Source: a virus. From it: a stretch of DNA of 64,000 nucleotides. Positions 13,295 to 57,229 of the stretch are shown one piece after another. Positions within the stretch are counted from its first letter, which is position 1. The number at the start of each line of letters is the position of its first letter. The translations under genes were made by a program, and so were the position numbers. The notes beneath the pieces were generated by a model. That model saw only the letters and a program-made list of their open reading frames with translations, was not told where the DNA came from and ran no database searches. The stretch is from the IMG/VR virus record IMGVR_UViG_3300031974_002457, positions 3,436-67,435 of that record, one strand, 5' to 3'.

Positions 13295-13666
13295 TTATTC
13301 TCCACATTTTTTACTGGGGTCATCTACTCTTCTCCAGTCTTCTTTTTGAAACCAGTCACGCAATGTAGCACCTTTTTTTCTAGCACCACTTACATTTGTT
13401 TTAGATGATCTTCTATATTTTCCACTAGCGCCTGAAGATCTTTTAGCGCTAACTAATTCTTTTTTCTTATCAGCTGACAAGCTATCTATTTTAGCTTTAG
13501 GCAGACAAGTCTTAGTTGTACCTCCACCTTTTTGTTTTTTCATAGGTGAAGATTTTTTACAACTACCTTTTGCACCTTGTGCAGTACCCGGTACTCTTTC
13601 ATAGCCTTTCCAACACTTCATGGGTGATGCAAGATTAGGACTTATATGTTTGTACGGGTGTGCCAT
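13295..13666 (-). CDS. small basic putative head-internal protein
   Basis: CWKGY, CLPKAK and LRDWF..EDW motifs; two SPMK copies. Confidence 0.6.
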   Translation of the reverse strand: MAHPYKHISPNLASPMKCWKGYERVPGTAQGAKGSCKKSSPMKKQKGGGTTKTCLPKAKIDSLSADKKKELVSAKRSSGASGKYRRSSKTNVSGARKKGATLRDWFQKEDWRRVDDPSKKCGE

Positions 13667-14136
13667 TATACTTTACCTTGTGTACATCTAACACCCCAAC
13701 CAGAGGCGTAAGCGCTAGGCCACACTTTAAATTTCTTTTTAGCTCTTGCTTTACATGAAGCAGAGATCTTACTCATTAAAGGTGATTTAGGTTTTAATTT
13801 AAAAGGTGATGCCATACCTCCTCTAGGTTCATGAACATATTGCTTACCACCATACATCTGTTTTTCAGTCATTTTAGCTTTATGAGCAAACTCAGCTTCT
13901 TGTTTTTTCTTTTTATAATCTTCCATCTGCTTTCTCTCTTTATCAATATATGATAACATTTGTTTTTGTCTTTGACCAGATTCAGTGACTCTTTTTAACC
14001 CATCACCTTCAGGTCTTTGTGGATTTCTGACATCTTCCTTAGTTTTTCTGCTGAATCCAAGCTTAGCAGGAGATTTTTTCTTTTCAGCCATACTCGCATG
14101 AGCGGCTTTTTGTTGTTCGTAATTTTTATATCCCAT
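13666..14136 (-). CDS. small basic putative head-internal protein
   Basis: C-terminal KFKVWPSAYASG motif; SPAK, SPFK, SPLM. Confidence 0.6.
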   Translation of the reverse strand: MGYKNYEQQKAAHASMAEKKKSPAKLGFSRKTKEDVRNPQRPEGDGLKRVTESGQRQKQMLSYIDKERKQMEDYKKKKQEAEFAHKAKMTEKQMYGGKQYVHEPRGGMASPFKLKPKSPLMSKISASCKARAKKKFKVWPSAYASGWGVRCTQGKV

Positions 14137-14147
14137 GATTTATATAT

Positions 14148-14516
14148 TTAACAGTTCCATCTACGTCTAGCAGCTCGACCTCTTTCACCGGTCCAGCCTT
14201 TTGATCTAGCGCAAAACGATTTTCTTCTTTTAGCAGCTTTACTACCAGGTTTAAGCTTTGATGGCTTAGTTGTTACTGCTGTTTTTAATTTACTACCTGG
14301 ATTATTTCTTTTGTACTCATCAACTCCTTTTTGTGTCATACCACCACCTGCATCAGCACCAGTGCCAGTTGGATTAGCTTTATTAAAGTTTTTACCTGGT
14401 CCTATTGTTCTACGTGGATCTGCTTTTTTTAAAGGAGACTCACCACCATCTTGCATAAACGTTCTACGTCTACCGCAGCTAGTTACTTTAAAAGGGTTAT
14501 TTTTTTGTACGTACAT
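14148..14516 (-). CDS. small basic conserved phage protein (DUF6321-like)
   Basis: GGMTQKG...NPGSKLK...RRKSFCAR...WNC; leader MYVQKNNPF. Confidence 0.65.
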   Translation of the reverse strand: MYVQKNNPFKVTSCGRRRTFMQDGGESPLKKADPRRTIGPGKNFNKANPTGTGADAGGGMTQKGVDEYKRNNPGSKLKTAVTTKPSKLKPGSKAAKRRKSFCARSKGWTGERGRAARRRWNC

Positions 14517-14517
14517 A

Positions 14518-15528
14518 TTATATATCTATTATAGTTGTAGTTTGTTTTATCAATTCATCTCCTATTAATCCACCATCCCATGTTCCTTGTAAAACATCTC
14601 CATTAAAAACTAAATTTCCTGCAGCATCTTTTTTTGGTATAAATTTTCCTTTACCTAGTTGATCAAAGTTTTTCATACCATAACCATCAAACCAATTACC
14701 ATATTTACCTCCTTTTTCGTGTTTAAACCAGTGACCAGCTGTTCCTCTTTGACCAGTTGGGGTAATATGGTGAACTTTATCCATAACAGGATAGTTAATA
14801 CCTTGTGAAGTAACTTTATATTTTTTACCAGTTGCCTCATCAACCCAGTCTATTGATTTTCCTCCACCACCAGTTGATCTTATAAAAGATACTTTTTGTC
14901 CATTATCTATAGTAGCTTCCATTACAGATCTATTTGATACATCACCGGCATATTTTAGATTAAGGGTTTTAGTATTATTAAAATTTTTTGCATTATCAAT
15001 TAATTTATTTCCAGCAACCACACTATTTCTTACACCTTCTTTGTTAGTTTGATTCCAATAACCCGTAACATTTCCATTAGGTGCATAAGGAGTACCGTGC
15101 GATTCAACATGCTTTAGCATATCGTCTTCACCCATGTTAAATTTTCCTTTTGTTGTTTTACTAACATTTTTAACATCCTTTGCTTTATCACTAAAACCTA
15201 AAACTCTTTTAAGTTTACCCATGTGTTTAGCTATTTTAGTCCCACCAGCTGCCCAACCAGCACCTGGAATCATAGCTGCACCAGATAAAGCAGCATCACC
15301 ATATTTTCCTTGTTTTGCATACCAAGAAGCATTTATTCCATCTGCTACCTCACCAATACCTGGAATCATACCTAAAACATCTAATGCTAAATGTCCTGTA
15401 TCACTTGCTGTCCACTTTTCATCTTTTATATTTTTCTCTTCAGGATTTATTTTTTTCTCTGGTTTTTTACCACCGGTCATTTTAAGAGGTCCTTTTTTTT
15501 GAAAAGGATTATTTTTTTGTACGTACAT
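14518..15528 (-). CDS. pre-toxin-TG domain protein (polymorphic toxin-like), C-terminal domain unknown
   Basis: LDVLGMIPGIGEVADGINASWY..G.Y.DAALSGAAMIPGAG; leader MYVQKNNPF. Confidence 0.6.
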   Translation of the reverse strand: MYVQKNNPFQKKGPLKMTGGKKPEKKINPEEKNIKDEKWTASDTGHLALDVLGMIPGIGEVADGINASWYAKQGKYGDAALSGAAMIPGAGWAAGGTKIAKHMGKLKRVLGFSDKAKDVKNVSKTTKGKFNMGEDDMLKHVESHGTPYAPNGNVTGYWNQTNKEGVRNSVVAGNKLIDNAKNFNNTKTLNLKYAGDVSNRSVMEATIDNGQKVSFIRSTGGGGKSIDWVDEATGKKYKVTSQGINYPVMDKVHHITPTGQRGTAGHWFKHEKGGKYGNWFDGYGMKNFDQLGKGKFIPKKDAAGNLVFNGDVLQGTWDGGLIGDELIKQTTTIIDI

Positions 15529-15989
15529 TATATTACCATGTATTTCGTTTTACCGTCTTCACGATAAGCTTTTAAGCATCTTTTTCTATTTTCACCTGGG
15601 TTAGTATAACTTACATGTACCCAGTCAGGATTTTGATCTGTACCAAACTCCCATATCATTTGATCGAAGTCTAAATTAGCTTTAATCCAATCATACATAG
15701 CAGCATTAGAAGCATGTCCATAAGTATCATCAATATCAATTGCTTGCCCGTGGCAATGCTGTGATTTTGCAGATCCGCCAATAGCTTTGTTAAGTTCAGG
15801 TCCACGATAGAACGAATTGATCTTTATAGGACCTCCTACGTGTATTCTAAGAGGTTCAAATACTTTTTCTGCTAAAAGCTTCATGTTTTGTAAATGAGTG
15901 TCTGTAGGATCATTTTTTAAACCTAGCCTTAAAGCTGTTATACTGTGTACACCTTCTTTGTAACTTATGTGTTTACTTATTCTATCCAT
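15528..15989 (-). CDS. peptidase M15 family endolysin
   Basis: SFYR...N..IGG...SQH..GQAID...WVHVSY zinc ligands. Confidence 0.85.
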   Translation of the reverse strand: MDRISKHISYKEGVHSITALRLGLKNDPTDTHLQNMKLLAEKVFEPLRIHVGGPIKINSFYRGPELNKAIGGSAKSQHCHGQAIDIDDTYGHASNAAMYDWIKANLDFDQMIWEFGTDQNPDWVHVSYTNPGENRKRCLKAYREDGKTKYMVI

Positions 15990-16536
15990 TTATTTTATCT
16001 TTTACATAGTTAAACATATCATTACCAATTTTTTCACCAAGATCAGAGTCGGATTTAAAATGTGCTCTACCAACCCTTCTACTCATTGATATATCTTTAC
16101 CTTCTTTTTCAAACTCAGCTTTGTGTTGTGGGTATAGTTTACCTAATGCTTTACCTATTAAAACCCCCTGTACTGAATGACCTGAAGGATATGATGGTGT
16201 TTTCATTGAATCCATTTCAATATCATCAAGCTTCATACCAAAACTACCAGCTAAATGCTTAGGTCTAGGTCTTTTAAAATGATTTTTTAATTTTAAAACT
16301 TTAGGAGCACTTTCATCTATTAAAGCTTTTACTAGTTCTTTAGGATAAGGTAAACCTTTAGCTTTTGTTATTTTTTTAAAAGCAAACTCTTGATTATCTT
16401 TTTCTTTAACAAAACTAGGATCTTTACGCATCCCGTTTATTTCTTTTAGTTCTTTTAATGTTGTTAAGGAATTATCTTTTGGCGGTTTAATATTTTTATA
16501 TTTTTCAATATCAAAACCAGATAAAATTCCTTTCAT
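15982..16536 (-). CDS. PAP2/haloperoxidase-superfamily phosphatase
   Basis: K....RPRP, SYPSGH, SR.....HF.SD. Confidence 0.8.
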   Translation of the reverse strand: MKGILSGFDIEKYKNIKPPKDNSLTTLKELKEINGMRKDPSFVKEKDNQEFAFKKITKAKGLPYPKELVKALIDESAPKVLKLKNHFKRPRPKHLAGSFGMKLDDIEMDSMKTPSYPSGHSVQGVLIGKALGKLYPQHKAEFEKEGKDISMSRRVGRAHFKSDSDLGEKIGNDMFNYVKDKING

Positions 16537-16676
16537 TATTTTTTTATTATTTTCTTAATAGCTTTAGCTTTAGATTTTATTTCTTCAGCTTTAGCAATAA
16601 TAATATCATCAACAGTAGTTTTACTCCAAAGTAAAGTCCACACGTCAATCCAATATTGTTTAGTTAATTTCCACAT
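16536..16676 (-). CDS. small amphipathic protein, 46 aa (MWKLTKQYWIDVWTLLWSK...)
   Basis: Read from the sequence; TAATG coupling to the next gene. Confidence 0.6.
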   Translation of the reverse strand: MWKLTKQYWIDVWTLLWSKTTVDDIIIAKAEEIKSKAKAIKKIIKK

Positions 16677-16687
16677 AATTTATTTAT

Positions 16688-16729
16688 TTAGCATCCGCAA
16701 CAAAACGGACAGTTAGGTATTCCACACAT
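16688..16729 (-). CDS. 13-aa cysteine-rich peptide MCGIPNCPFCCGC
   Basis: ATG four nt after the thioredoxin-like stop; fills the gap; GC-richer than the surrounding spacers. Confidence 0.5.
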   Translation of the reverse strand: MCGIPNCPFCCGC

Positions 16730-16733
16730 AATT

Positions 16734-17141
16734 TTAAAATTTACTTGCTTGGTTAATTTCGTTTACAGTTTCTTGTATTTCTTGTAAGTCAGTTGGTAAA
16801 GCTAAATCCAAACCAGCTTTGAAACTAGCTTCTCTTATGCCATCTTTAAATATTAATATGGTCGGCGCCATACGTATTTTATATTTTTTCTTAGCATTTG
16901 GAGCTTTTGCAATATCAACCCTGTAATAAACTGCGTTCTGTATCTTGTCCCATTCGGCAAAGCAGTTGTCTTTATTAAATTCAGCCCAAAACTCAACAAC
17001 AACGGGTTTATCATTGTTATCACCAAAAGCGCTGTTATTATTAATTTTTTCTTCAAAGTCTGAATCATTGATCCAGTATTTAGTTGGTACATCTGATTGG
17101 CTAAATGATATAAATGTTATTAAAATTGGTAAGTATTTCAT
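16734..17141 (-). CDS. secreted thioredoxin-fold protein lacking CXXC
   Basis: Short hydrophobic N-terminus; PVVVEFWAEFN, cis-Pro loop IRMAPTILIFKDG. Confidence 0.7.
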   Translation of the reverse strand: MKYLPILITFISFSQSDVPTKYWINDSDFEEKINNNSAFGDNNDKPVVVEFWAEFNKDNCFAEWDKIQNAVYYRVDIAKAPNAKKKYKIRMAPTILIFKDGIREASFKAGLDLALPTDLQEIQETVNEINQASKF

Positions 17142-17425
17142 TATCTTCGTTGTTGTAGTTCATATAATCTTTGATCAATTTTATCTAGCTGTTCCTGTAT
17201 TGCCTCAACATCATCTTGTGTATCTAAAATTGTCTGACGTATCAACTCGTCTTTAAGATCATATTCTACACGATCGATAACAGGTTTAGGTAGTTCTTTA
17301 GCGAGTGCTATATCAGCCTGTAGCGTAAACCACATTGCTGCTAAGCTAAACACTCCTGCCCCAGCTAAACCTATAGTTTTTAAGTCTATTGTAACTTTAG
17401 TTTCTTCACTAATTTGCTTTGCCAT
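17141..17425 (-). CDS. single-TM coiled-coil membrane protein
   Basis: N-terminal TM segment, C-terminal heptads; N-terminus resembles 17409..17729. Confidence 0.55.
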   Translation of the reverse strand: MAKQISEETKVTIDLKTIGLAGAGVFSLAAMWFTLQADIALAKELPKPVIDRVEYDLKDELIRQTILDTQDDVEAIQEQLDKIDQRLYELQQRR

Positions 17426-17729
17426 TATATTGATCTTCTAATTCTTTAATTAAATCTTGTAATTTTTCTACATCTTTCTGTAGATATTCAATTCTTAAAT
17501 CTTGTTTAGCGTCATCTGGTAATGCACCCATTTCACCGCGTGGCCATTTAATTCTAAACTCATCGTTTAGTGTTTGATTATACTCAAGCCTCATTATTGA
17601 AGATTCAATAACACTTATTTTACCTGTTAAATCAAACCATATGCCAGCTATAGATACAATACCTACCACTATACCTATTAATGTTTTTATGTCGAGTTTT
17701 ACTTGTGATTTTTCTGATAGTTCTTCCAT
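17409..17729 (-). CDS. single-TM coiled-coil membrane protein
   Basis: LDIKTLIGIVVGIVSIAGIW TM segment, then coiled coil. Confidence 0.55.
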   Translation of the reverse strand: MEELSEKSQVKLDIKTLIGIVVGIVSIAGIWFDLTGKISVIESSIMRLEYNQTLNDEFRIKWPRGEMGALPDDAKQDLRIEYLQKDVEKLQDLIKELEDQYNGKAN

Positions 17730-18901
17730 TATCTAAAGGTGTAATTTATACCAAAGTTTGTTCCATATATTTCGCTGTCCCAAAACTTGGTATACTCACC
17801 CTCTACAAATACACCCAAAGCTTTACTTACTTTCCAACCAAACATTAAACCTGCTTGATAGTCAGACCATTGTTCACCGTTAAGTAAATCATTATGACCT
17901 CCTTTGCCCCAACTATTTCTATGTAAATAGCTAAAGTCTTCATTACCTTTAACATATTTATGATAAGGTAATATCCAGCTACCGTAAGCATGTAGCCAAA
18001 AATTATTTTTATAGTGATAAAAATCAAAACCGACGATAGGCGCAACTTCAGCAAAAGGATCTAGTTCAGCCCAACGCTCTTGATTATATCTATTTAATAA
18101 ACCAGGCATTATATCATCTCTAAAGTCTCTATCAGTGTAAGCTACTATAACACCGTTTTCATCTCTCCAAAACCAATCATAATAATAATCACCTGTTACC
18201 CAGTCTATCATTTGATAGTATATATCTTCATAACCATATTCATGACCTAGTTCATACCAGTAGTTAACTATACCACCATTTTCATCTGTTTCATTTAACC
18301 ATATTTCTACAGGATTATATCCGTAAGGTCTTTGGTGTGTTCTATATATTGCGCCTGCAGATATACTAAATTTCTTGCCAATAGGTAACCTGGCTCTTAA
18401 TTCACCAGATGTATATTTAAAACCTACATTACCTGATTCTCTGTTTTCAAATTTAGCAATATGATAATTACCAGTGTGTCTAATAAATAATCTTTTATTG
18501 TTAAATTCGTCACCATTATGTCTTTGTTTTTCCCAATGTAATAAATACTCTAAACCTTGCACCGCTGCTGAAGGAGCTGATAATGCTACGTTGCTTTCTT
18601 TACCATTATAAAAGTTTTGACCTTTTATTTCATAATCAAATCTAGCTAGCTTTCTAATACCAAGACCATATCTATAATCAAATGGATGATATACGGTTTG
18701 ATCAACTACGTCTGGTATTGCATATAGGTTTTCTGGATCTGTACGTATGAAATATTTAGGCTGCTCTTCTTTAGCATTACCTATATTTCCTGCTGCATAG
18801 AACGTGCCGTACTTTAAAAAGTCTTTGTATAACTCTTGTAGGAATTGTCCTTGCGCATTGCTAGATATTAGCAACGCTAAGATTAATAATAGTTTTTTCA
18901 T
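17729..18901 (-). CDS. putative outer-membrane beta-barrel protein
   Basis: Sec signal MKKLLLILALLISSNAQG; aromatic alternating strands; C-terminal FGINYTFR. Confidence 0.6.
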   Translation of the reverse strand: MKKLLLILALLISSNAQGQFLQELYKDFLKYGTFYAAGNIGNAKEEQPKYFIRTDPENLYAIPDVVDQTVYHPFDYRYGLGIRKLARFDYEIKGQNFYNGKESNVALSAPSAAVQGLEYLLHWEKQRHNGDEFNNKRLFIRHTGNYHIAKFENRESGNVGFKYTSGELRARLPIGKKFSISAGAIYRTHQRPYGYNPVEIWLNETDENGGIVNYWYELGHEYGYEDIYYQMIDWVTGDYYYDWFWRDENGVIVAYTDRDFRDDIMPGLLNRYNQERWAELDPFAEVAPIVGFDFYHYKNNFWLHAYGSWILPYHKYVKGNEDFSYLHRNSWGKGGHNDLLNGEQWSDYQAGLMFGWKVSKALGVFVEGEYTKFWDSEIYGTNFGINYTFR

Positions 18902-27232: not shown

Positions 27233-27862
27233 TTATAAAGGAGTAGTACCTCCAAGAAGTGAACCAGCCATATCGCCTACACCTGATATAGCCATATTAT
27301 CATGCATAGCTTTTTCAGCTTGTGCTTTTTGAAGATCTTGACCTGTTAAATTCATCATACTTTCTATTTTAGAAAACTCAGCTTGTCTTTGCATTATATC
27401 ACCTTGTATTTTTGAATCTTGTATTCTACCAGCTTCACCCATAGCAAGTCTTTGATTAGCTTGTTCTTGCTGACCAATACTAGCAGCCGCTTGTTGAGCG
27501 TTTTGTGATTGTTGCTGTGACATAGCTTGAGCTAAAGCAGCAATACCAGAACCACCAGCCGCAGCACCAAATTGATCCATCATATTAGCTTGTGACTGCA
27601 TTTGCTGTTGTTTTATCATATCAGCTTGCTGTGTATTAACTGTAGCATCCTCATATACGTTTTCCATAGTAGCATATGGATTAGAGGTGTCCATGTTTTC
27701 AAATCTTTGTTTTTGCATATCATATGCGCCTTGAGCTCTAGCTAAAGCTCTTTTTCTTTTACCTCCACCTATTAAACCTATCGCAGCTTTTGCAAGCCCA
27801 GGGGCTACTGCCGCGGCTATAGGCGCCAATTTTAAGGGTGATTCTCCTTGATATTTTTTCAT
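27233..27862 (-). CDS. putative small ejection (pilot) protein
   Basis: Ala/Gly hydrophobic ends, Gln-rich coil, N-terminal ESPLK. Confidence 0.55.
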   Translation of the reverse strand: MKKYQGESPLKLAPIAAAVAPGLAKAAIGLIGGGKRKRALARAQGAYDMQKQRFENMDTSNPYATMENVYEDATVNTQQADMIKQQQMQSQANMMDQFGAAAGGSGIAALAQAMSQQQSQNAQQAAASIGQQEQANQRLAMGEAGRIQDSKIQGDIMQRQAEFSKIESMMNLTGQDLQKAQAEKAMHDNMAISGVGDMAGSLLGGTTPL

Positions 27863-42291: not shown

Positions 42292-44502
42292 TTATTGTTT
42301 TATTAATTTTGATTGCATGCCTTTGTTTTTATATTTAGCTATGCTTAAATTTATTTTTTGTTTTTCAACATTTGCTCTAGGTGAGTATAAATGCCTATTG
42401 CAAGCCATAATAGCTAAACCGCTACTAATCGTTGCATCAAATTTAGTTCTTCTTGTTATATCAAAGCCAGCCCAATCATTTAACGTGTTGTTAAAAACCA
42501 TGCTACCAACACTACCGTCTTCCTTCATACCAACATGATCATTGATATACATTTCAATTGCGGCAGCGTGTGCCTGTTTAATATCTTCACTAGAGTTTGG
42601 CATACCACCTACTTCTCTTTCAGCAACTGATAATTTATTCCAAACTTTATCAGGTCTATTCATTGAATAACCTCTATATCCTCTTCTTTTTAAATAATAT
42701 AATAATCTAGGTTTGTTGTTTTCTGCGAGTAAAGGCATGCCATAAAAAACCAGTGCCATTAAAACATCCTCAAAAAACATTTCAGCTGTTTGCGGTCTAG
42801 CTATATACTCTAAGAAAAACTCACTAGCAGGTGCGTCTTCCATACTAAATTTAGTTAAACCGTGTAAAGCACCTTTAGATCCTTTACCATCAACAGTACC
42901 TGATATATCATAACTATCACATCCAAAAGCACCCATATGCTCGTTACCTGGATATTTTATACCATTTTTTACTATTTGCTTGTTTTGTAAATGTCTTGGT
43001 GGCACCCAACCTATGTTAAATCTACCCTGTTGATTTGGTAAAAACATAACAGTTGTGTCTTTTATACCATTAGCCCATTGAAAATTACCTTTAGTATAAT
43101 TAACACCACCTTCATTAACATCTATTTGCTCGTATATTTTTACTAGATTAAATATACTATTTTTAGTTTCATCTCTGAAAGCATGTTCTTCAGTTCTTGG
43201 AAACTGTCTATAAAATTCGTTTAAAGCATCTTGATCATTTCTTAAACCATCTGCTTCGTTTTGCCAATGATCTATAACACCTATATCTATATAATCACCA
43301 TAGTGATCTAATATTTCTTCTTCAGGCGTTTCAAAAACAGGTCTACCATATTGATCCATAAAACCCTCATAATTCCACTCCATTGGAATAAACAAAGAAT
43401 AAAGACCAGAACTAGTTTGACCATTTCTGTTTCGTTTTGTAACATCAGAGTCGTAATATAGTTTTTTAAATTCGTTTCCACCTTTATCCAAAGCGTTTGA
43501 TGTTGACCCCATCATACACTTGCCTATAATTTTACTACCTAATCTTAATGTCGTCTTTGTGACCCTCCAGTTGTTGAGGATATTATTGGGTTTTTCCCAT
43601 TTCCCGGATTCGTCATGGACGAGGAGTTTGAGTTTTTCTCCATCGTACGAGTTGTCCCCGGTGTTTTTCCAATCGATTGTGGTATCAAGTCCCGTGAGCT
43701 CCTCGGGCCTTTCACTCGTACTCGTGATATTCCTTCTTGTGAGCTTTGATGCGGGTACCCTATATGCCAGCTCGGTCTTGGGTCTATCCATACCGTCCTG
43801 TATTGGTTTAAAAAAGAACGGGTAATTGACCGATATTGGTACCACTTTATCTGTGAACATTTTCTTAGCATCGGGCCCAGATTTGGACAATATGCCGAAT
43901 CGTGCATCGGAACTAATTGTAGCTGAATTAACCACTTCTCCACTGGCCATAAAGCTAAATCCCGATCTACGGTTTTTGAGATAGCACATTCCGTAACAAC
44001 GTCTGTCTGCTTTACAAGCTTCCCAGAATATGTAGAAGAGTCTGTTAGCTTCTCTGAAGTCTGGGTTACCAACATCAATTTTGGACCACTGCAAGTACAT
44101 ATAATGAGTGCCAGTAATATAAGTAGCAATACCCTTGTTATAAAACCAGAAACCATTTTCTCTTTTTCTAAACTCATCTTCTATATAGTCAATATATTTA
44201 CTTTTAAAATCTTGCGGATATTCACGCCAATCAAATATTGTTTTTATCCTATTAAGCTCTTTTGGATACGGTGTTACTTGCCATTTGTCATGCTCAAACT
44301 TCTTAACTACTTTTGGCGTTTTTGGCAAAGCTATTTTTAAATTCTGTATGCTATACACATCGCCAATCGTACCATCTTTGCTAATAACTACAACGTCATG
44401 TTCTTTGTTATAGCCATATTCCCAAGCCTTTCTTTTATTAAGCCTTTTAATTGTGTTTAATTTTATAGGCTTAATAATTTCGTATAAATTTTGCTTGTAC
44501 AT
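42292..44502 (-). CDS. terminase large subunit
   Basis: KNRRSGFS (Walker A variant), LLVHDESGK (Walker B), GST, nuclease GCDSYD. Confidence 0.9.
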   Translation of the reverse strand: MYKQNLYEIIKPIKLNTIKRLNKRKAWEYGYNKEHDVVVISKDGTIGDVYSIQNLKIALPKTPKVVKKFEHDKWQVTPYPKELNRIKTIFDWREYPQDFKSKYIDYIEDEFRKRENGFWFYNKGIATYITGTHYMYLQWSKIDVGNPDFREANRLFYIFWEACKADRRCYGMCYLKNRRSGFSFMASGEVVNSATISSDARFGILSKSGPDAKKMFTDKVVPISVNYPFFFKPIQDGMDRPKTELAYRVPASKLTRRNITSTSERPEELTGLDTTIDWKNTGDNSYDGEKLKLLVHDESGKWEKPNNILNNWRVTKTTLRLGSKIIGKCMMGSTSNALDKGGNEFKKLYYDSDVTKRNRNGQTSSGLYSLFIPMEWNYEGFMDQYGRPVFETPEEEILDHYGDYIDIGVIDHWQNEADGLRNDQDALNEFYRQFPRTEEHAFRDETKNSIFNLVKIYEQIDVNEGGVNYTKGNFQWANGIKDTTVMFLPNQQGRFNIGWVPPRHLQNKQIVKNGIKYPGNEHMGAFGCDSYDISGTVDGKGSKGALHGLTKFSMEDAPASEFFLEYIARPQTAEMFFEDVLMALVFYGMPLLAENNKPRLLYYLKRRGYRGYSMNRPDKVWNKLSVAEREVGGMPNSSEDIKQAHAAAIEMYINDHVGMKEDGSVGSMVFNNTLNDWAGFDITRRTKFDATISSGLAIMACNRHLYSPRANVEKQKINLSIAKYKNKGMQSKLIKQ
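43545..44156 (-). CDS. candidate overlapping lipoprotein-like gene nested in terL (+1 frame)
   Basis: More than 200 stop-free codons; MVSGFITRVLLLILLALIIC signal; terL uses CTC/GTC/TCC codons here. Confidence 0.4.
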   Translation of the reverse strand: MVSGFITRVLLLILLALIICTCSGPKLMLVTQTSEKLTDSSTYSGKLVKQTDVVTECAISKTVDRDLALWPVEKWLIQLQLVPMHDSAYCPNLGPMLRKCSQIKWYQYRSITRSFLNQYRTVWIDPRPSWHIGYPHQSSQEGISRVRVKGPRSSRDLIPQSIGKTPGTTRTMEKNSNSSSMTNPGNGKNPIISSTTGGSQRRH

Positions 44503-46799: not shown

Positions 46800-48641
46800 C
46801 TATAAACCAGTCCTACTAATATATACCGTATTACCTGGATGTCTAGCTAGTGATTTAGTAGGATTTACAAACCAGTTTGTTATAAACGTAGTAGTAGTAC
46901 TAGTGTTATAAACAGTTGTTGTGTTAGTGCTTGTATTATATGTGGTTGTTGTTGTTTTGCTAGTATTAAAAGTCGTAGTAGTTGTCGTACTAGTATTAAA
47001 TACTGTTATTGTTGTTTTACTCGTTATTGTACTAGTGTTAAAAAATGTCGTATAAACAGTTGTTGTATCTGTTTGTGTATTATATACAGTTGTAGTACTA
47101 GTATTAAACGTTGTAACATATGTTGTTGTAGTAGCAGTACTCGTGTTAAATACTGTTGTTGTACCTTTACTTGTTATTGTACTAGTGTTATACTCTGTGG
47201 TCACCGTGGTAAACCAATTTGTTATTGTTATTGTCTGTGTTGTTCTACTAGTGTTCCAAAACGTAGTATACGTAGTTGTCGTATCTTTTTGTGTCTCATA
47301 AGCAGTAGTTGTAGACTTACTTGTATTGTAAGTCGTTGTAGTATCTCTACTTGTAGACACAACAGTTGTTCTGTTAGTTATAAATATAGTAGTTCTACTA
47401 GTGTTCCAAGTTGTTGTTGTGTTCCTACTTGTTGATACAGTTGTTGTTCTGCTTGTTGATGTTGATCTACTAGTATTAAAAGTAGTTAAAGTATTATAAA
47501 CCGTAAATGTACCAAATGTTGTAGTGGTAGTCGTACTAGTATTAAACGTGGTAGTTGTTGACTTACTTGTGCTAACAGTTGTAGTTCTACTGGTATTATA
47601 TATAGTTACTGTAGATGTATTAAATGTAGTAGTTGTTGACTTAGACGTATTAAACGTAGTGGTCGTTGATCTACTTGTTGATACTGTAGTAGTTCTACTA
47701 GTCGACGTGCTTCTACTAGTTTCAAATGTTGTTAGCGTGTTGTAAAAAGTGAACGTACCAAAAACAGTAGTAGTTGTTTTACTAGTGTTAAATATTGTTG
47801 TAGTACTCTTTGTTGTTAGCTTAGACGTTGTTCTACTGGTAGATGTGTTTCTAGTTGTAAGGAATGTTGTCGTTCTACTTGTAGCTGTTAACCTTGTAGT
47901 GTTGTAAGTAGTTGTCGTGCTTCTTGTTGTTGCCCACGTAGTTGTCGTGCTTCTAGTTGTAGAAACAGTTGTAACTCTACTTGTACTAGTTGATCTAGAC
48001 GTACTAAATGTTGTTAAAGTACTATATTGCGTAAAAGTATTAAATACGGTTGTGGTTGTTTTAGTCGTTGCCCACGTTGTAGTTGTGCTTTTGGTGGTTA
48101 ACTTAGATGTAGTTCTACTTGTAGCAGTTGCTCTACTGGTATTATATGTTGTTGTTGTACTTTTACTAGTAGATATAACAGTTTTTCGAGTTGTAGCTGT
48201 GGACCTAGTAGTATTAAACGTAGTTGTCGTGTTAAATGTAGTAGTCCAATATGTAGTATATATTGTTAATGTACTTCTACTAGTGCTAAAAGTAGTTAAA
48301 GTACTATACTGAGTAAAAGTATTAAACGTAGTTGTTGTAGTCTTACTAGTATTAAAAGTAGTTGTAGTAGATCTTGATGTCGTGGTAGATCTAGTTGTTG
48401 ATGTACTTCTACTTTCAGTTGTATTTCTACTTTCAGTTGTATTTCTTGATGTAGCCCATGTTGTCGTAGTAGATCTAGTAGTAGATCTAGTTGTAGTTCT
48501 ACTTGTATTAAACACGGTTATTGTATTATATACAGTAGTTGTACTCGTATTAAACGTAGTCGTTGTGTTTTTTGTCGTACCTCTTTTAGTTATGGTCGAC
48601 GTATTATATATTGTTGTTGTGGATCTACTAGTTAACGGCAT
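46800..48641 (-). CDS. Thr-rich repeat protein (613 aa)
   Basis: Almost entirely TTTT[FYW]NTS[RK][ST]-type repeats with diversified codons. Confidence 0.7.
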   Translation of the reverse strand: MPLTSRSTTTIYNTSTITKRGTTKNTTTTFNTSTTTVYNTITVFNTSRTTTRSTTRSTTTTWATSRNTTESRNTTESRSTSTTRSTTTSRSTTTTFNTSKTTTTTFNTFTQYSTLTTFSTSRSTLTIYTTYWTTTFNTTTTFNTTRSTATTRKTVISTSKSTTTTYNTSRATATSRTTSKLTTKSTTTTWATTKTTTTVFNTFTQYSTLTTFSTSRSTSTSRVTTVSTTRSTTTTWATTRSTTTTYNTTRLTATSRTTTFLTTRNTSTSRTTSKLTTKSTTTIFNTSKTTTTVFGTFTFYNTLTTFETSRSTSTSRTTTVSTSRSTTTTFNTSKSTTTTFNTSTVTIYNTSRTTTVSTSKSTTTTFNTSTTTTTTFGTFTVYNTLTTFNTSRSTSTSRTTTVSTSRNTTTTWNTSRTTIFITNRTTVVSTSRDTTTTYNTSKSTTTAYETQKDTTTTYTTFWNTSRTTQTITITNWFTTVTTEYNTSTITSKGTTTVFNTSTATTTTYVTTFNTSTTTVYNTQTDTTTVYTTFFNTSTITSKTTITVFNTSTTTTTTFNTSKTTTTTYNTSTNTTTVYNTSTTTTFITNWFVNPTKSLARHPGNTVYISRTGL

Positions 48642-48643: not shown

Positions 48644-49201
48644 CTACGGTATTTTAATATATGAATTAGGCATTATAGGATAATATATCCTACCATTATT
48701 ATTAATATGTGGCTCATAATGCTCATTTAAACTATCTCTTTGTTCTACAGTAATTTGATTATCCCACCATAAGTCAGCAATAATCAAGTCATACATTTTA
48801 TCAGGCGTATACGTATATGCGTCTGCGTTTATAACGTTAATTGAATTATCAATAAAATCAACGTAATCAATAAGCTCTTGGTTATTATCTATAACATCGA
48901 TAACTTGTACAAAGCTTTTATTTTCTTTTATATATTGTGGTAATAAACCTAAACCTAACCCTAACACTAACACATTAGGATAGTCTGGTATACCTTCAAA
49001 TATTCTTTTATGTTGAATACTACCTAAATAGTAAAAATTATCTGGATCAACTTGAGGACCATCACCCATAAATATTTCACCATAGGCACTTATGTTGTCT
49101 ATAATATCTCCACTAGAAAACGTAAGTCTAGATACACCGTTTACTTTCGTAACTGAAAAACTTGTTCCCGAATATTCTGTTATTAAATTCTCTTGTATCA
49201 T
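48644..49201 (-). CDS. SAM-dependent methyltransferase, spermidine-synthase-like fold
   Basis: VLVLGLGLG, IDVID, INADAY, YDLIIADLW. Confidence 0.7.
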   Translation of the reverse strand: MIQENLITEYSGTSFSVTKVNGVSRLTFSSGDIIDNISAYGEIFMGDGPQVDPDNFYYLGSIQHKRIFEGIPDYPNVLVLGLGLGLLPQYIKENKSFVQVIDVIDNNQELIDYVDFIDNSINVINADAYTYTPDKMYDLIIADLWWDNQITVEQRDSLNEHYEPHINNNGRIYYPIMPNSYIKIP

Positions 49202-51465
49202 GATATTCTTTTAAATTCTACGTCAACTTTACTATAATCAACAAATAAATCATTGTTAAATTCAATTGATGCTAAAGGAACTTCATCAGCCATGACACCT
49301 TGGTAAACACCTTTTTTCATAACATCATCTATATATTCAAAACTGTATATATTTATACCACTTTCTGATACACCTATTAGCTTAATATTTTTCTTATATT
49401 TTCTATCTGAACAACTAAATGTATTTGTTATTAATCCACCCGCACCTATAGTTATAACTTTATCTGGAGAGAAACCGTTATTAAAGTTTATACCATAGTT
49501 AGCTGATCCTAAAGGACTAGAACAAGCACTGTTTGTGTAAACATAACTACCAACACCCATAAAACCATAGGTTGTTGGACTATACGCAATAATACTTGTT
49601 GATCCACTACACTCAAAAGCAGGTTTACTATTACTACCACTTGTTCTATAAAAATCATAACATTGAACAGTGTTATATGTTGTTGTTGTAGATCTACTAG
49701 TATTTCTTAATATAGTGCTATATTGAGTTAATAAAGCCTCGCTAGTTGTTCTACTTGTGCTTCTTAAAACTGTACTTCTACTAGTCGATGTTGATCTAAT
49801 TGTTTGATAAGTTGTAGTAAAAGTAGTAGTAAACGTAGTAGTTGTCGTTGTGCTAGTATTAAAAGCTGTATTTGTAATATAACTAGTAGACGTAGTATAC
49901 GTTGTTGTTGTGTTAAACGTAGTTGTAGTTGTAAACGCAGTAGTAGTTGCTCTACTAGTTGCCCAAGTTGTAGTAGTGCTTCTAGTTGTTGATGTAGCTC
50001 TTTTCTCTTGCGTAGTCGTATTAGTGTTATATGTTGTTGTAGTATTTCTTGACGTTGCTCTACTTGTTTGTCTAGATGTTGCTGTTGCTCTAGTTGTATT
50101 AAATGTAGTGGTAGTATTAAACGTAGTCGTTGTGCTAGTGTTAAAAGTTGTAGTTGTACTTTTAGATGTATTATACGTAGTGGTTGTATTAAAAGTTGTT
50201 GTCCAAGACGTAGTATACTGCGTAACTGTAGTCGTAGACGTATTAAACGTTGTGGTCGTATTTCTACTAGTTGATGTAGCTCTCTTTTCTAGCGTAGTAG
50301 TATTTGTATTATACGTTGTAGTAGTGTTAAACGTAGTTGTAGTACTAGTATTGAAAGTAGTTATTGTAGCTGTACTTGTATTAAATGTTGTCGTAGTACT
50401 TTTACTTGTATTAAATATTGTTAAAGTATTAAACGTGGTTGTTCTACTAGTGTTAAACGTAGTTATTGTAAGAAACGTTGTGGTCCAAGATGTTGTATAT
50501 TGTGTGGTCGTAGTTGTTGACGTGTTAAATGTCGTTGTTGTATTTCTACTAGTCGACGTAAACCTTTTTTCTGTCGTTGTTGTATTAGTATTGTATGTTG
50601 TTGTTGTATTAAATACAGTAACGGTTGACGTATTAAATGTAGTCGTAGTAGATTTACTAGTATTATATGTTGTTGTGGTAGATCTTGACGTGGCCCAAGT
50701 TGTAGCTCTAGTAGTATTATACGTAGTCGTAGTTGACGTATTATATACAGTAGTTGTACTTTTTGTTGTAGCCCAAGTTGTTGTTGTTGATCTTGATGTT
50801 TGAGTTTGTCTTTTTTCGCTAGTAGTTGTATTTGTATTATACGTTGTTGTGGTATTAAATACAGTTGTAGTAGATGTGTTAAATGTTGTTGTAGTAGTTT
50901 TACTAGTTTGAAATATAGTTGTTCTACTTGTTTCATACGTTGTCAACGTACTAGTGTTAAAAGTTGTCGTAGTTGTTTTACTAGTGTTATACGTAGTTGT
51001 AGTGGTAGTGGATGTATTATATACGGTTATAGTTGTTCTACTTGTTATTTTACTAGTCTGAAAAGTAGTTGTATATACAGTTGTTGTATTAGTTGAAAAA
51101 GCCTTTTTTGTAGCTGTACTAGTGTTGTACGTAGTCGTATAAACCGTAGATGTTATTTTATTTGTAGACACTACAGTGTTAGTAGACTTAGATGTAACTC
51201 TAGATTCTGCAAAAGTAGTTACTTTACTTGTACTGTAATATGTTATTGTGATTGTGTTTGTAGTTCTAGAAGTTTCTACAGTTGTTGTGTATACTGTAGT
51301 TGTGTCTTTAGATGTAGACCAACTGGTTGTTGTAGACTTTTGAGTATTATATGTAGTAGTCGTGCTTTTACTAGTATTAAACGTAGTAGTCGTGTTCTTA
51401 CTAGTCGATACGCTAGTATTCTTGGTTGTATTCCAGAAATCTATTCTTGACCAAAACCACTTCAT
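49198..51465 (-). CDS. Thr-rich repeat fibre protein with C-terminal peptidase S74 chaperone domain
   Basis: About 600 aa of TTTT[FY]NT[ST] repeats, a Cys-containing domain, then SDRKYKKNI...IYSFEY...GVMADEV...VDYS. Confidence 0.75.
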   Translation of the reverse strand: MKWFWSRIDFWNTTKNTSVSTSKNTTTTFNTSKSTTTTYNTQKSTTTSWSTSKDTTTVYTTTVETSRTTNTITITYYSTSKVTTFAESRVTSKSTNTVVSTNKITSTVYTTTYNTSTATKKAFSTNTTTVYTTTFQTSKITSRTTITVYNTSTTTTTTYNTSKTTTTTFNTSTLTTYETSRTTIFQTSKTTTTTFNTSTTTVFNTTTTYNTNTTTSEKRQTQTSRSTTTTWATTKSTTTVYNTSTTTTYNTTRATTWATSRSTTTTYNTSKSTTTTFNTSTVTVFNTTTTYNTNTTTTEKRFTSTSRNTTTTFNTSTTTTTQYTTSWTTTFLTITTFNTSRTTTFNTLTIFNTSKSTTTTFNTSTATITTFNTSTTTTFNTTTTYNTNTTTLEKRATSTSRNTTTTFNTSTTTVTQYTTSWTTTFNTTTTYNTSKSTTTTFNTSTTTTFNTTTTFNTTRATATSRQTSRATSRNTTTTYNTNTTTQEKRATSTTRSTTTTWATSRATTTAFTTTTTFNTTTTYTTSTSYITNTAFNTSTTTTTTFTTTFTTTYQTIRSTSTSRSTVLRSTSRTTSEALLTQYSTILRNTSRSTTTTYNTVQCYDFYRTSGSNSKPAFECSGSTSIIAYSPTTYGFMGVGSYVYTNSACSSPLGSANYGINFNNGFSPDKVITIGAGGLITNTFSCSDRKYKKNIKLIGVSESGINIYSFEYIDDVMKKGVYQGVMADEVPLASIEFNNDLFVDYSKVDVEFKRIS

Positions 51466-51477
51466 ATTCTATTTAAA

Positions 51478-51849: not shown

Positions 51850-51864
51850 ATTATTATATTTAAA

Positions 51865-51896: not shown

Positions 51897-51909
51897 ATTT
51901 ATTGTTTTA

Positions 51910-54279: not shown

Positions 54280-54305
54280 TTTTGTTTTAGTTTAAGTTTT
54301 TGTTA

Positions 54306-54656
54306 TTATTTTTTTATGTAAGCATATCCGCTTTTAGCGTCTATAAAATTTATAGTTAATTGATTTTCGTTTACGTAAGTAACAATGCCCATAGCTTGAA
54401 CATTGTTAAACGTTGCACCACCTGATAACTTTATGTTAACATGCGGTAAATAATCTTCTAGATCTAAGTTGTGTGTTATTGTCCAGGTAGCAGAAGCACT
54501 ATTTTGATTATGCTTATATACACCAGAATTTTCAGCAAAGAAATTAGATAAGTCTGATATTTTAAAGTTCTTAGTGTTTCCAGCCTCATCTGATCCTAGT
54601 AACTTATCGTCATCCGTTATACTTGTGTCGTTCTGTATTCTACTAATTCTGGGCAT
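54306..54656 (-). CDS. small structural protein
   Basis: WTITHNL motif, related to the YNIVHNF at the fibre C-terminus. Confidence 0.55.
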   Translation of the reverse strand: MPRISRIQNDTSITDDDKLLGSDEAGNTKNFKISDLSNFFAENSGVYKHNQNSASATWTITHNLDLEDYLPHVNIKLSGGATFNNVQAMGIVTYVNENQLTINFIDAKSGYAYIKK

Positions 54657-55066
54657 TATTTTCCGTTTTTAAATTTATTGTATTTTTCAACACTTCGTCC
54701 GCCGAAATAGGCCCCAATAACAGTGATCAACACGAGCTGAAGTAAATCTACCCATTTGCTATCAACGTTAAAGTTTATAGAGCCACTATCAATGAAAACC
54801 ATTAACACAGTGCTTAATATTAAAAAAACAAGGACTAAAGGTCTTACTGATCTAGTAAGCCAGTTACCGTGTTCTAGGTCTGCTTTCCATCTTTCGGTTA
54901 CGTTTTTTTGCATAGCGGCTTCCGCGTCAATAAATATCTGCGTCATTTCTTTTTCAAACGCAGCCTTCTCTTCTTTTGTATGTACAAATTTATCAACAAC
55001 ACCGCTAAGTTTTTCGACGATACCACCTCCAGCATCGCCAAAAAGTTTAGCTAGTATTTTAGACAT
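54656..55066 (-). CDS. holin (GTA 3TM holin-like)
   Basis: RW.AD...WL.RSVRPL, two TM helices, AYFGGRS.EK. Confidence 0.7.
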   Translation of the reverse strand: MSKILAKLFGDAGGGIVEKLSGVVDKFVHTKEEKAAFEKEMTQIFIDAEAAMQKNVTERWKADLEHGNWLTRSVRPLVLVFLILSTVLMVFIDSGSINFNVDSKWVDLLQLVLITVIGAYFGGRSVEKYNKFKNGK

Positions 55067-55069
55067 TTA

Positions 55070-55864
55070 TTACTTCTTTTTATATAATTTAGCCGCTGAT
55101 CCTTTTTTCTTTAAAATCTTGTCTTGAACTCCTTTTGGAAGTTTGTCAAAACCTTTATTTAATTTATTTGGAGATTTAGCCATTTTAGCAGGTGACTTTT
55201 TCATTTTAGCTGCGCTATCATCTTCTTTTTTCTTACCAATATTCTTGATTTTATTCTTAGCGCCTCTTAAAAAGTTACCAACTTTTGTTCCACCTTCTTT
55301 TTTAATTCTATCAGCTCTCTTTTGTTGTCTCTCAGCTCTTTTAGCTTGTCTCTTCTCTTTGTTAGAAGCAGCAACCTCTTTTCTAGTGTTTTTTACTACA
55401 TTAGTTTTTTCAACTTTAGCCTCTTCAGTTTTTGGAGGATCAGTTTTTGGAGCGTTGTTTTTATTCTTAACGTTTTCCGCTAATTGCTTTTTTGAAATAT
55501 TCTGCTTTTTAGCTTCAGAAGTAGGATTTTCAGTATCATACTTCTTTTTATTATAAGACTTAGCAGCTTTTTCAAACTCTTCATAAGTTTTATACTTTGT
55601 CTTATCAGCATCAGCATAAGCATCTTTATAAGATACAGCTTTACCAGCTTTTCTTGCTTCAGCATTTTTCTTTTTTTGTGCGTCGTCACCACTAGAATAA
55701 CCTTTGCCACGACCCACAGGAGAATTTACAATTTTTGATGATCCACCTCTTTTAAGCGGTGACTCTATGCCAACACCTTTGATAACTGGCTTTTGTGATG
55801 GTACTCCGTCAGGATTACCTAATCCAGCCGATTTTAATTTTTGATAAATGTTACTTGCTTTCAT
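55070..55864 (-). CDS. Lys-rich protein with multiple SPxK/SAAK motifs
   Basis: SPLK, SAAK, SPAK, SPNK. Confidence 0.6.
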   Translation of the reverse strand: MKASNIYQKLKSAGLGNPDGVPSQKPVIKGVGIESPLKRGGSSKIVNSPVGRGKGYSSGDDAQKKKNAEARKAGKAVSYKDAYADADKTKYKTYEEFEKAAKSYNKKKYDTENPTSEAKKQNISKKQLAENVKNKNNAPKTDPPKTEEAKVEKTNVVKNTRKEVAASNKEKRQAKRAERQQKRADRIKKEGGTKVGNFLRGAKNKIKNIGKKKEDDSAAKMKKSPAKMAKSPNKLNKGFDKLPKGVQDKILKKKGSAAKLYKKK

Positions 55865-55885
55865 TTTTGTTTATTTAGTCCTTGT

Positions 55886-57229
55886 TTAATATTTGTTAAA
55901 ACCGCTAAAACCTTTCATTTTAAACGGTGCTTTACTTTTATTTTTTAAATTCATTGAATTAGAGCTGTTATTTTTTACATAGCTTTCAGCGTTTTCTTGA
56001 ACACCCATATTTTGTGTTGATTCTGATCCCTCAGTACCTTCTTTACCAATTCTAGTTTTACCAACTGGTATATTATAATCAGCACCGTAACTGTCAGCAA
56101 CGTATTTTAAATAAGCGTCTTTACTTTCAAAGCTTTTACCAGTTGATGGATCAATAGCTCCTTTTCTGTCAAACTTTTTACCTTCTCTATTTAATATTCT
56201 ACCGAGTTTTTTTCTACCTCTATTTCTAACACCAGCTCCCCATTTGGTGTCCATAGATTCATAATAACCCATATTATATTTATCAGGTGTCCCAGGTGTT
56301 CCTGGTTCTTTTACTGTTTCTGTTCTAGGTGTAAAAGAATGTGATGTATCTACAGTAGTTTCTGATCTAACACCATCTTTAACTTCTCTTTCTAGTCTTT
56401 TTTTCTTTTGCTCTGGAGTTTCATTTGCTAAATATTCTTTCCATTTTTCATTAGACATTTTATCCTTATAACCTCCACCAATAACTTCACCTGGTTTAGT
56501 TACTGTTGTTTCAGTTACATCACCAAAAGCATCATCAGTACCATCGTCGTCAGTATCGTAGTTTACACCTTTAATTTCTTTAGTAGCAGTTGTCTCTGCA
56601 TGTAAAGGTGATGATTTCGCCTTAAGTGTAATTGGATTAGCTTTCATTTTCATAGCCGACTTATCTTTGTTTTTCAAGTTCATTTGTCCACCTGACTCTT
56701 CAAGGTTTTCTTTCTTTTGATCATTAGGATTTGTATTTTTCTTCATGAAACCTTCAAAACCTTCAATTTGACTAGTAACTTTACCAACAGCGTCACCAAT
56801 AGCTTTATGCTTATCAGCTTTTGCGCGTAGTTGATCACTTAAAATAGCTGCGTTTTGTCCTAATGTTGTATTACTTAGTCCAAAGTTTAATTTGTTTGGG
56901 GATGATTTTTTCATATTTTTTGTTTTTTGATAAGCTTCTGCCTCCCATGGTAGTTTTTTAGATCCTTCGTTCATATCGTCACGATCATATTTTTTACCTT
57001 TCCAGTAGACATTATTATCGTCATAGTTTAAATCACCTCTAGCCATTTGATCCATATGCACCATTTCGTGTGCTATAGCTTCTTTAGCTAAAGGACTGTC
57101 ATTTTTGACATCTTTATCTAAATATATAGTTCCGTCGTTGTTTGCTTCTGCTATAACACCGTCGTCTAACTCTTTTTTAATTACAGGTATTTTGCCTGTT
57201 TTTACTTTATTTGTAATAGGATTTGCCAT
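55886..57229 (-). CDS. HEXXH metallopeptidase-domain protein with SPxK-punctuated C-terminal region
   Basis: AIAHEMVHMDQ...LPWEAEAY; ATG 57229. Confidence 0.65.
   Translation of the reverse strand: MANPITNKVKTGKIPVIKKELDDGVIAEANNDGTIYLDKDVKNDSPLAKEAIAHEMVHMDQMARGDLNYDDNNVYWKGKKYDRDDMNEGSKKLPWEAEAYQKTKNMKKSSPNKLNFGLSNTTLGQNAAILSDQLRAKADKHKAIGDAVGKVTSQIEGFEGFMKKNTNPNDQKKENLEESGGQMNLKNKDKSAMKMKANPITLKAKSSPLHAETTATKEIKGVNYDTDDDGTDDAFGDVTETTVTKPGEVIGGGYKDKMSNEKWKEYLANETPEQKKKRLEREVKDGVRSETTVDTSHSFTPRTETVKEPGTPGTPDKYNMGYYESMDTKWGAGVRNRGRKKLGRILNREGKKFDRKGAIDPSTGKSFESKDAYLKYVADSYGADYNIPVGKTRIGKEGTEGSESTQNMGVQENAESYVKNNSSNSMNLKNKSKAPFKMKGFSGFNKY

Follow-up and report, generated by a model that had tools for sequence, protein, structure and literature searches.

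Why does one four-residue peptide, Ser-Pro-x-Lys (SPxK), recur in unrelated proteins encoded at scattered places in a marine phage genome? The DNA analyzed here, called the window, is a stretch of 64,000 nucleotides (bases 3436-67435 of the 67,435-bp virus record IMGVR_UViG_3300031974_002457 in IMG/VR) from a 67.4-kb podophage of the Flavobacteriia-phage type. A preliminary description of the window had named seven dispersed proteins as carriers of the motif, among them a HEXXH protease, and had proposed that SPxK is a capsid-loading or maturation-cleavage tag. The analyses below establish that the motif is enriched, that it is kept in divergent linkers, that it lies on the N-terminal side of modules only, and that it coincides with the starts of shorter homologues. 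By analogy with the capsid targeting sequence (CTS) of phage T4, we tentatively read it as a CTS-like tag or a cleavage site, a shared handling signal of late proteins.

Enrichment of the Motif in the Window

Every motif string listed in the preliminary description was found in the gene to which it had been assigned. Frequencies were evaluated over 70 chosen open reading frames (ORFs; 20,556 aa) against within-protein shuffles. SPxK occurs 11 times, with 3.4-3.6 copies expected, and a count of at least 11 was reached in 2/2000 shuffles and in 0/1000 in a second run. Restricting the third residue sharpens the signal, with 6 copies of SP[LFM]K against 0.44 expected and 8 copies of SP[LFMAIVY]K against 1.24 (0/1000 shuffles in each case). 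The enrichment check that the preliminary description had called for thus places SPxK above composition and contradicts an origin in Lys-rich composition alone. Ten of the 11 copies fall in six of the seven named proteins; the Lys content of these six is 14-24%, but only 6% in the protein encoded at 27233. The eleventh copy, SPDK in a tail-fiber-like protein (49198-51465), looks like a chance occurrence. The third residue is Leu, Phe, Met, or Ala in 8 of the 11 copies.

Relaxed forms of the motif stay at expectation in the window: TPxK (3 versus 3.2), APxK (3 versus 3.7), and GPxK (5 versus 4.0), and no enrichment was found there for NPxK (6 versus 3.7), SAxK (8 versus 6.9), SPxR (2 versus 1.5), or the reversed pattern K.PS (3 versus 3.4). 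The looser variants that had been counted as motif copies (GPLK, NPFK, SAAK, and APFK) accordingly occur at chance frequency in the window; two looser sites, SAMK and APFK of the HEXXH protein, occupy conserved positions in orthologues. Since GPxK is not enriched, the GPLK of the 14518 protein is unsupported as a motif copy, and six of the seven proteins originally named carry SPxK. The codons of the motif vary synonymously, which locates the signal at the protein level and rules out a DNA-level signal.

Placement of the Motif at Leader Ends and Module Joints

The motif is found at the end of a 7-24-residue N-terminal leader or at joints between modules. The seven proteins and a motif-free neighbor are laid out as follows.

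13295-13666, minus strand: 123-aa basic protein with a leader and two SPMK copies (13616-13627 and 13538-13549) around a small Cys module; C-terminal "RDWF" mini-domain at 13295-13381.
13666-14136, minus strand: 156-aa basic protein with SPAK (14062-14073), SPFK (13798-13809), and SPLM (13774-13785), the last directly before a very conserved 35-aa C-terminal domain (13669-13773, minus strand).
14148-14516, minus strand: 122-aa protein with a leader containing NPFK (14487-14498), a CGRRR module, an SPLK joint (14427-14438), and DUF6321.
14518-15528, minus strand: 336-aa protein with GPLK (15481-15492); its first 9 residues are those of the 14148 gene.
27233-27862, minus strand: 209-aa protein with an 11-aa leader ending in SPLK (27830-27841), then a Gly/Ala-rich hydrophobic segment.
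54656-55066, minus strand: 136-aa GTA_holin_3TM-like membrane protein (PF11351, 26.8 bits versus a cut-off of 24.8).
55070-55864, minus strand: 264-aa protein, 24% Lys, with SPLK (55751-55762), SPAK (55184-55195), SPNK (55163-55174), and two SAAK.
55886-57229, minus strand: 447-aa protein with a predicted N-terminal minimal zincin domain (56909-57229) containing HEMVH (57056-57070), and an extension with SPNK (56891-56902), SAMK (56648-56659), SPLH (56600-56611), and APFK (55919-55930).

A fuller consensus of the leader reads Met-Ala-Phe/Tyr-Lys-x-Lys, a few residues, and then Ser-Pro-hydrophobic-Lys. Of the 1,945 distinct ORFs in the fetched loci, 94 begin with "MAFK," more than with any other tetrapeptide (the runner-up accounts for 42), and MAFK opens members of at least five unrelated families, including the stand-alone form of the metallopeptidase described below. 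The C-terminus of the HEXXH protein of the window repeats the leader type that opens other ORFs. The adjacent genes 14148 and 14518 are identical over their first 27 nucleotides but for one mismatch (26/27) and then diverge completely.

Homologues confirm the preliminary observation that the motif often sits just before a discrete domain: it ends leaders, marks module joints, and has shorter homologues starting right after it. Among the fetched loci, 80 contain the 35-residue C-terminal domain found in the 13666 family. Of 67 distinct ORFs with this domain, 47 have [ST]P-hydrophobic-x at most 8 residues before it, and others start at the domain itself. Both motif positions of the 13295 protein are kept in the orthologues of loci L143, L149, and L150, where they flank the small Cys module, and shorter homologues of this family start just a few residues past the second copy. 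In the 14148 family, compared across six near-complete relatives (the window genome and G001-G005, an estimated 92-100% complete), the SP[LM]K joint and the DUF6321 region are fixed and the module upstream is swapped, being of the CGRRR type in the window and G001 and Cys-rich in G002-G005. In locus L172 the SPLK joint is duplicated in tandem. Counted over the three small domains, SP-hydrophobic-[KNQ] lies upstream in 21/67, 30/73, and 16/50 distinct ORFs and downstream in 0, 0, and 0, in a sample in which the ORFs are not independent and the domains usually end the ORF, leaving little downstream sequence. The holin-like protein, a conserved cassette partner of the metallopeptidase gene that is itself motif-free, serves as a negative control, with the pattern in 0/60.

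A homologue of the 13666 protein gave only a weak DUF5872-like Pfam match. DUF6321 (PF19846) covers residues 55-111 of the 14148 protein (Pfam E 3e-11, 44.2 bits versus a cut-off of 28.5). It also occurs as a stand-alone, motif-less small gene in the pelagiphages HTVC028P (L084) and HTVC023P (L085), and in the cyanomyophage P-TIM68 (L086) it forms the C-terminal module of a 427-aa multi-module protein adjoining the terminase gene, the N-terminus of which resembles the C-terminal mini-domain of the 13295 protein. A likeness of DUF6321 to gp80, a Lys-rich structural protein of Cellulophaga phage phi38:1, was rejected (BLASTP E 7). The body of the 14518 protein, which has a Gly/Ile/Pro-rich region, belongs to no known family (Pfam gave nothing even at E 5), and its only relative is a 100%-identical contig fragment (L087). 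A pre-toxin TG or toxin reading of this protein, suggested by that region and by PT-TG/Ntox50 feature scores of 0.80-0.82, below the trust level, was kept as a lead only.

A Leader-Bearing Family with Virion Annotations

On sequence comparison, the family of the 27233 protein is the cleanest case for the leader motif. All 8 of the members compared (window, G001-G005, L081, and L082) have SP[LF]K within the first 17 residues, with differing flanks and with leaders that vary in length and sequence. A HMMER search returned 837 representative clusters (50% clustering), and the best 150 of the 837 were classified. In 21 of these, a leader of 7-24 aa closes with [ST]P-hydrophobic-[KHQ] and the hydrophobic segment follows at once; 58 have the segment at their very start, and the remaining 71 comprise fusions, fragments, and other forms. 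Over the same 150, the motif was counted 25 times in the 4,500 residues that make up the first 30 aa and 15 times in the other 36,001 residues, a 13-fold difference in density. Many leaders of the family begin Met-Ala-x-Gly-x-Tyr-Lys-Met-Lys.

The isolates closest to the window by portal and capsid protein are the uncultured podovirus record MW202828 (55% and 49% identity, respectively), Maribacter phage Panino (portal search only), the Flavobacterium "elemo" phages, and Cellulophaga phage phi38:1. A tblastn search with the 27233 protein found no match among isolate phages at E 1e-3, and the leader is carried by none of the isolates in the collection searched. Its positional counterparts, phi38:1 gp99, a 302-aa protein of MW202828, and elemo gp20, are leaderless and start at the hydrophobic segment. 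Both gp99 and gp20 are annotated as "(virion) structural protein," and the 27233 family is the sole motif-bearing family with such labels. Virion proteomics of Cellulophaga phages was reportedly published by Holmfeldt et al. in 2013.

A Predicted Minimal Zincin Domain in the HEXXH Protein

In agreement with the preliminary description, which had recognized no canonical prohead protease, the whole 67,435-bp genome contains 0 matches to the Peptidase_S78, S77, and ClpP profiles, and a head-protease family was matched by 0 of 36 window proteins scanned with Pfam. The protease that had been proposed instead, the HEXXH protein, has an N-terminal domain that is accepted as a predicted minimal zincin-like metallopeptidase, to which no named family is assigned. 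The longest ORF of the gene, from 57259, overlaps the gene upstream; the alignment of all orthologues begins at the Met at 57229, the likelier start.

The first ~107 residues represent a family of mostly stand-alone ~102-aa proteins, with homologues in 166 stretches of IMG/VR and 406 proteins of a large protein collection, none of the 406 being listed with a functional name or Pfam domain. The HEXXH protein itself has no Pfam match and, taken whole, no match among isolate phages; the zincin domain alone is matched in 5 isolate records (Xanthomonas, Caulobacter, and Ochrobactrum phages) at 28-46% identity. In all 35 rows of the domain alignment H54, E55, and H58 are unchanged, and in the model they lie on helix 46-64. 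E96 and E98, on helix 94-108, are invariant as well, and either could be the third metal ligand.

The domain model (predicted local distance difference test score, pLDDT, 76) contains the three N-terminal strands and two helices expected of a zincin. In VIA-align its structural neighbors include PprI (Z 6.2), SPRTN (5.2), abylysin (5.0), selecase (4.9), ArdC (4.8), and Wss1 (3.6), along with the VgrG2b effector domain, CapP, lugdulysin, and lethal factor; Wss1 aside, these neighbors have modest scores (Z 4.7-6.2), and nearly all top rows are zincins, with Z of only 4.2-6.2. The top Foldseek matches are selecase and abylysin. The domain can thus be likened to the minigluzincins (selecase, proabylysin, and projannalysin), to IrrE/PprI, to SPRTN, and to ArdC-type minimal zincins, from which it differs in that the structural scores are modest (Foldseek E at least 0.09, Z at most 6.2) and come without a sequence-level family.

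The 330-aa extension that follows is modeled with low confidence. In a model of residues 1-200, confidence extends to ~107 and pLDDT is <50 from 108, so that SPNK, at residues 110-113, falls into low-confidence coil and helix that are uninformative on its docking. Among the orthologues of the six near-complete relatives, the post-domain motif copy, the SAMK-type site, and the C-terminal APFK-type site stand out as conserved islands against a background of 36-50% identity.

Association of the Metallopeptidase with Motif-Bearing Genes

The window and G001-G005 have a common gene order: GroEL, GroES, a 146-aa gene, the HEXXH protein, the Lys-rich protein, and the holin-like gene. More widely, 95 loci with a metallopeptidase gene were compared, a redundant set selected in part via a small domain. 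The holin-like gene lies within five genes in 80 of them, one of the three small domains is present in 35, and a directly adjacent ORF has at least 17% Lys in 69 (background, 499 of 2,364 ORFs). The ORF directly upstream of a stand-alone metallopeptidase gene carries the motif in 20/66 loci, compared with 3/54, 5/57, and 5/60 at positions further upstream and at most 7/68 downstream. In L143, L149, and L150, the two separate clusters of the window are joined as one cassette.

All eight leader-bearing genomes of sufficient completeness, namely those at least 92% complete (the window, G001-G005, and G009) and G010 (73%), encode the metallopeptidase. The complete genomes of phi38:1, MW202828, and elemo are without it, and their counterpart proteins are without the leader; in the parts of these genomes that were examined, SPxK is not enriched (1 copy versus 2.0-2.7) and SP[LFM]K is absent (0). 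Judged from gene neighborhoods, the peptidase belongs functionally with the small basic proteins. As the enzyme that would cut at the motif, it is a doubtful candidate, put forward on account of its neighborhood only. Complex predictions combining the zincin domain, a 13666-family motif tail and domain, and zinc scored 0.02, 0.44, and 0.01 (median 0.02; mark 0.32) and count neither way.

In many marine contigs (for example, L143:4858-5004, L149:2917-3063, and L119:3614-3781), the gene just upstream of a stand-alone metallopeptidase is a conserved ORF of 48-57 aa with a Gly-Leu-Gly-Asp start and a Cys-Gly-Cys pair; it has no Pfam match.

Function of the Motif

In the tag proposed here, a short Lys-rich peptide, serving as a leader or as a junction, ends in the conserved Ser-Pro-(Leu/Phe/Met/Ala)-Lys, and the phage places this peptide before independent modules: three small basic Cys-containing domains, the Lys-rich protein, the metallopeptidase extension, and a virion protein, probably of the ejection type. 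The peptide would mark late proteins for a common step, which we infer to be either loading into the head, where the small proteins would then reside, or endoproteolytic release, presumably at the bond right after the Lys. The co-encoded 100-residue zincin, by its neighborhood, would be the only candidate enzyme. The designation of the seven proteins as late is reasonable and is likewise inferred, all seven lying inside a long minus-strand block. A fuller version, in which many uncultured marine phages share an undescribed cargo system whose leader sends small basic and ejection proteins into the capsid and whose stand-alone zincin, a new head-maturation or cargo protease, clips them after Lys in the absence of every canonical prohead protease, we consider unlikely.

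Several findings limit the case for a tag or cleavage site or weigh against it. Among 5,764 observed a-b-x-c patterns of the window, SPxK ranks only 26th (Poisson p 8e-4); the patterns above it stem from the Thr/Ser/Asn-rich repeats of two tail-fiber-like proteins. The window alone therefore fails multiple testing, and the case rests on homologues. The 27233 protein matches phi38:1 gp99 weakly (BLASTP E 4e-4, 29% over 80 aa), and the "structural protein" labels are record annotations, the data behind them untraced. All motif proteins are known from sequence. Stand-alone ORFs of the 13666 family often keep S/T-P-L-Y 2-5 residues from their own start, where a cut would be purposeless, which suggests that Ser-Pro is partly a structural element; in the zincin model, a Ser-Pro in the segment before HEMVH starts the catalytic helix 46-64. 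ORFs of 42-44 aa adjoining the metallopeptidase gene carry three motif copies each, for which repeated DNA-binding turns are a better fit than cutting.

The enzyme, too, is loosely tied to the motif. A metallopeptidase is found in 7/10 records with a leaderless 27233-family protein, and it lies within 4 kb in 19/79 loci of the 13666 family, where the small proteins are mostly motif-less. Conversely, 8/10 tested leader-bearing records gave no metallopeptidase, all of them fragments that are 40-76% complete. The contrast of 8/8 versus 7/13 has a one-sided Fisher p of 0.03 that derives largely from six close relatives. Occurring beside leaderless and motif-less forms, the metallopeptidase is not specific to the motif. 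Of the capsid-loading or cleavage tag originally proposed, the placement before interchangeable modules is supported, and release by that metalloprotease is a hypothesis.

An alternative already raised in the preliminary description, possible but carrying less weight than a tag, is that SPxK is a histone H1-like (S/T)PxK turn of the SPKK type in Lys-rich proteins that condense or shield AT-rich phage or host DNA, with no cleavage involved. SPKK units bind the minor groove of A/T-rich DNA, a property said to go back to Suzuki in 1989. The likeness is greatest in the 55070 family, which has the four-residue form in Lys/Ala-rich low-complexity sequence of H1-like composition; its Lys-rich orthologues in the window and G001-G005 (203-336 aa, 23-25% Lys) have 4-7 copies that vary in number and position. 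The genome has a G+C content of 31-37%, the motif-bearing small proteins have net charges of +21 to +45, and phi38:1 has two small Lys-rich proteins annotated as structural, gp69 and gp80. According to parts of PMC3012670, lysines of T4 internal proteins contact DNA phosphates. The zincin, whose structural neighbors include the DNA-dependent proteases SPRTN and Wss1, may on this account degrade DNA-bound proteins as these do, or be unrelated.

What such a turn fits less well is the sequence of the motif and its position. SPKK units have Ser or Thr, Pro, and two basic residues and are repeated in a basic tail, whereas here the third residue is mostly hydrophobic, Thr is unused, single copies stand before non-basic segments, and basic-tail repeats are found only in the 55070 family. 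Neither TPxK nor SPxR is enriched. In the 27233 protein, which has a net charge of 0, the single copy precedes a hydrophobic Gly/Ala segment, and neither the strict N-terminal-side placement nor the starts of shorter homologues would be expected of a generic DNA-binding turn. An H1 turn thus accounts better than a tag for repeats in Lys-rich proteins and for three copies in tiny ORFs; it accounts less well for a hydrophobic third residue, for a lone copy ahead of a hydrophobic segment, and for the rule that the motif stands at module starts. The two are not exclusive, because a DNA-bound basic protein could also be a substrate of a DNA-dependent zincin.

It is improbable that the motif is a passive linker, in which Ser caps a helix, Pro takes the first helical position, and the whole spreads by recombination of leader-plus-module units with no recognition role. 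The Ser-Pro opening the catalytic helix and the S/T-P-L-Y retained in stand-alone 13666-family ORFs would agree with such a linker; "MAFK" on unrelated families fits a shared ancestry of leaders, and the near-identical leaders of genes 14148 and 14518 show that recombination or duplication occurs. Against it, the four residues are kept amid divergence to 36-63% identity, and their synonymous codon variation points to selection on the peptide. In the 21 representatives of the 27233 family, moreover, leaders that differ in length and sequence all arrive at these four residues just before the hydrophobic segment, and Lys at the fourth position is unusual for helix N-termini. That Ser-, Pro-, and Lys-rich composition produced the motif by chance, as its rank of 26th and the chance-level relaxed variants might suggest, is highly improbable: shuffles that keep composition seldom reach the observed count, and composition cannot account for the motif's fixed positions in orthologues or for its 13-fold enrichment at N-termini in an independent sample of a family.

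Comparison with Known Systems

The tag reading has its closest parallel in the CTS of T4, described in parts of PMC3012670 as a short conserved N-terminal leader on diverse, exchangeable proteins. Here, too, unrelated modules share a leader, in two genes at the DNA level as well, and the family of at least one of its bearers is annotated as a virion protein. The two differ in sequence, and the present element is also internal, at module joints. The T4 leader is removed by the prohead protease gp21, whereas here there is no S77 (gp21-type), S78, or ClpP match. This phage, in addition, is a podophage with a crass-type muzzle domain, and its putative tag is known from sequence alone.

Polyvalent proteins, as portrayed in portions of Iyer, Burroughs, Anand, de Souza, and Aravind 2017 (PMC5512222), combine a zincin-like HEXXH metallopeptidase (MPTase), a type with 12 clades in that study, with series of small modules that are believed to be delivered together with DNA and perhaps to be freed by autoproteolysis. 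They are defined by 2-15 effector domains per polypeptide, often with an MPTase; the small proteins here have 2-3 mini-modules. PHROG 727 (450 aa), which joins 13666-type and 14148-type domains, resembles them, but most of the modules are otherwise encoded by separate small genes (45-160 aa), and the peptidase usually stands alone as a protein of ~102 aa. No mention of a linker motif was found in the main text of PMC5512222, its supplements lying outside the search. Virions of related crass-type phages store several megadaltons of cargo protein, according to part of PMC10172136, which makes room for cargo plausible here; the text of that paper on the crAss001 structure, supplements aside, does not mention proteolysis or a scaffold. 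A wider literature search, likewise excluding supplements, found no account of the motif, the leader, or the peptidase family. Head cargo that bears a leader tag and is processed by a protease is a known concept; what is new here is the motif, the class of candidate enzyme, and the group of phages.

If the tag reading is correct, a simple sequence rule would predict, for abundant uncultured marine phages, the proteins that the capsid carries and that go on to enter the host, among them hundreds of small basic "hypotheticals" (DUF6321, DUF5872-like, and others) that occur in pelagiphage and cyanophage genomes as well. It would also give a role to a widespread, unnamed family of 100-residue metallopeptidases with 406 homologues. 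Virion proteomics that relies on trypsin would not register a cut after Lys, and processing of this kind may therefore have gone unnoticed. Should the motif prove to be an H1-like turn, it would point to histone-like packaging proteins in phage heads, which are likewise little explored.

Genome Context

Nearly all genes are on the minus strand from ~60.1 kb down to 12.7 kb, and this block also includes a 2334-aa protein. Landmarks of the window are the following.

15528-15989: M15 endolysin.
30051-34376: 1441-aa protein with a crassvirus muzzle C-terminal domain.
37074-38546: capsid-type structural protein.
39864-42290: portal.
42292-44502: large terminase.
57668-57934: GroES (Cpn10).
57921-59480: GroEL (PHROG 5725, E 1e-135).

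GroEL and GroES are encoded two genes upstream of the metallopeptidase gene, an arrangement common to G001-G005. The three small basic-protein genes are followed immediately downstream by a methyltransferase-like gene in the same orientation (12698-13267; PHROG 24759, E 1e-16). The M15 endolysin is adjoined, within 15982-17141, by a PAP2-like protein (Pfam 24.1 bits, below the cut-off of 27.2) and a thioredoxin-fold protein with a hydrophobic N-terminus. Two transmembrane coiled-coil proteins follow at 17141-17729, and their homologues precede the small-protein cassette in L143 and L149.

The two Thr/Ser/Asn-rich proteins at 46800-48641 (613 aa, charge +47) and 49198-51465 (755 aa, +37) have internal repeats and a Pro content of at most 1%; the repeats yield the most enriched tripeptides of the proteome (TSR, 39 versus 6.3; FNT, 37 versus 5.6). 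GC skew is positive across 46-52 kb despite the minus-strand genes there.

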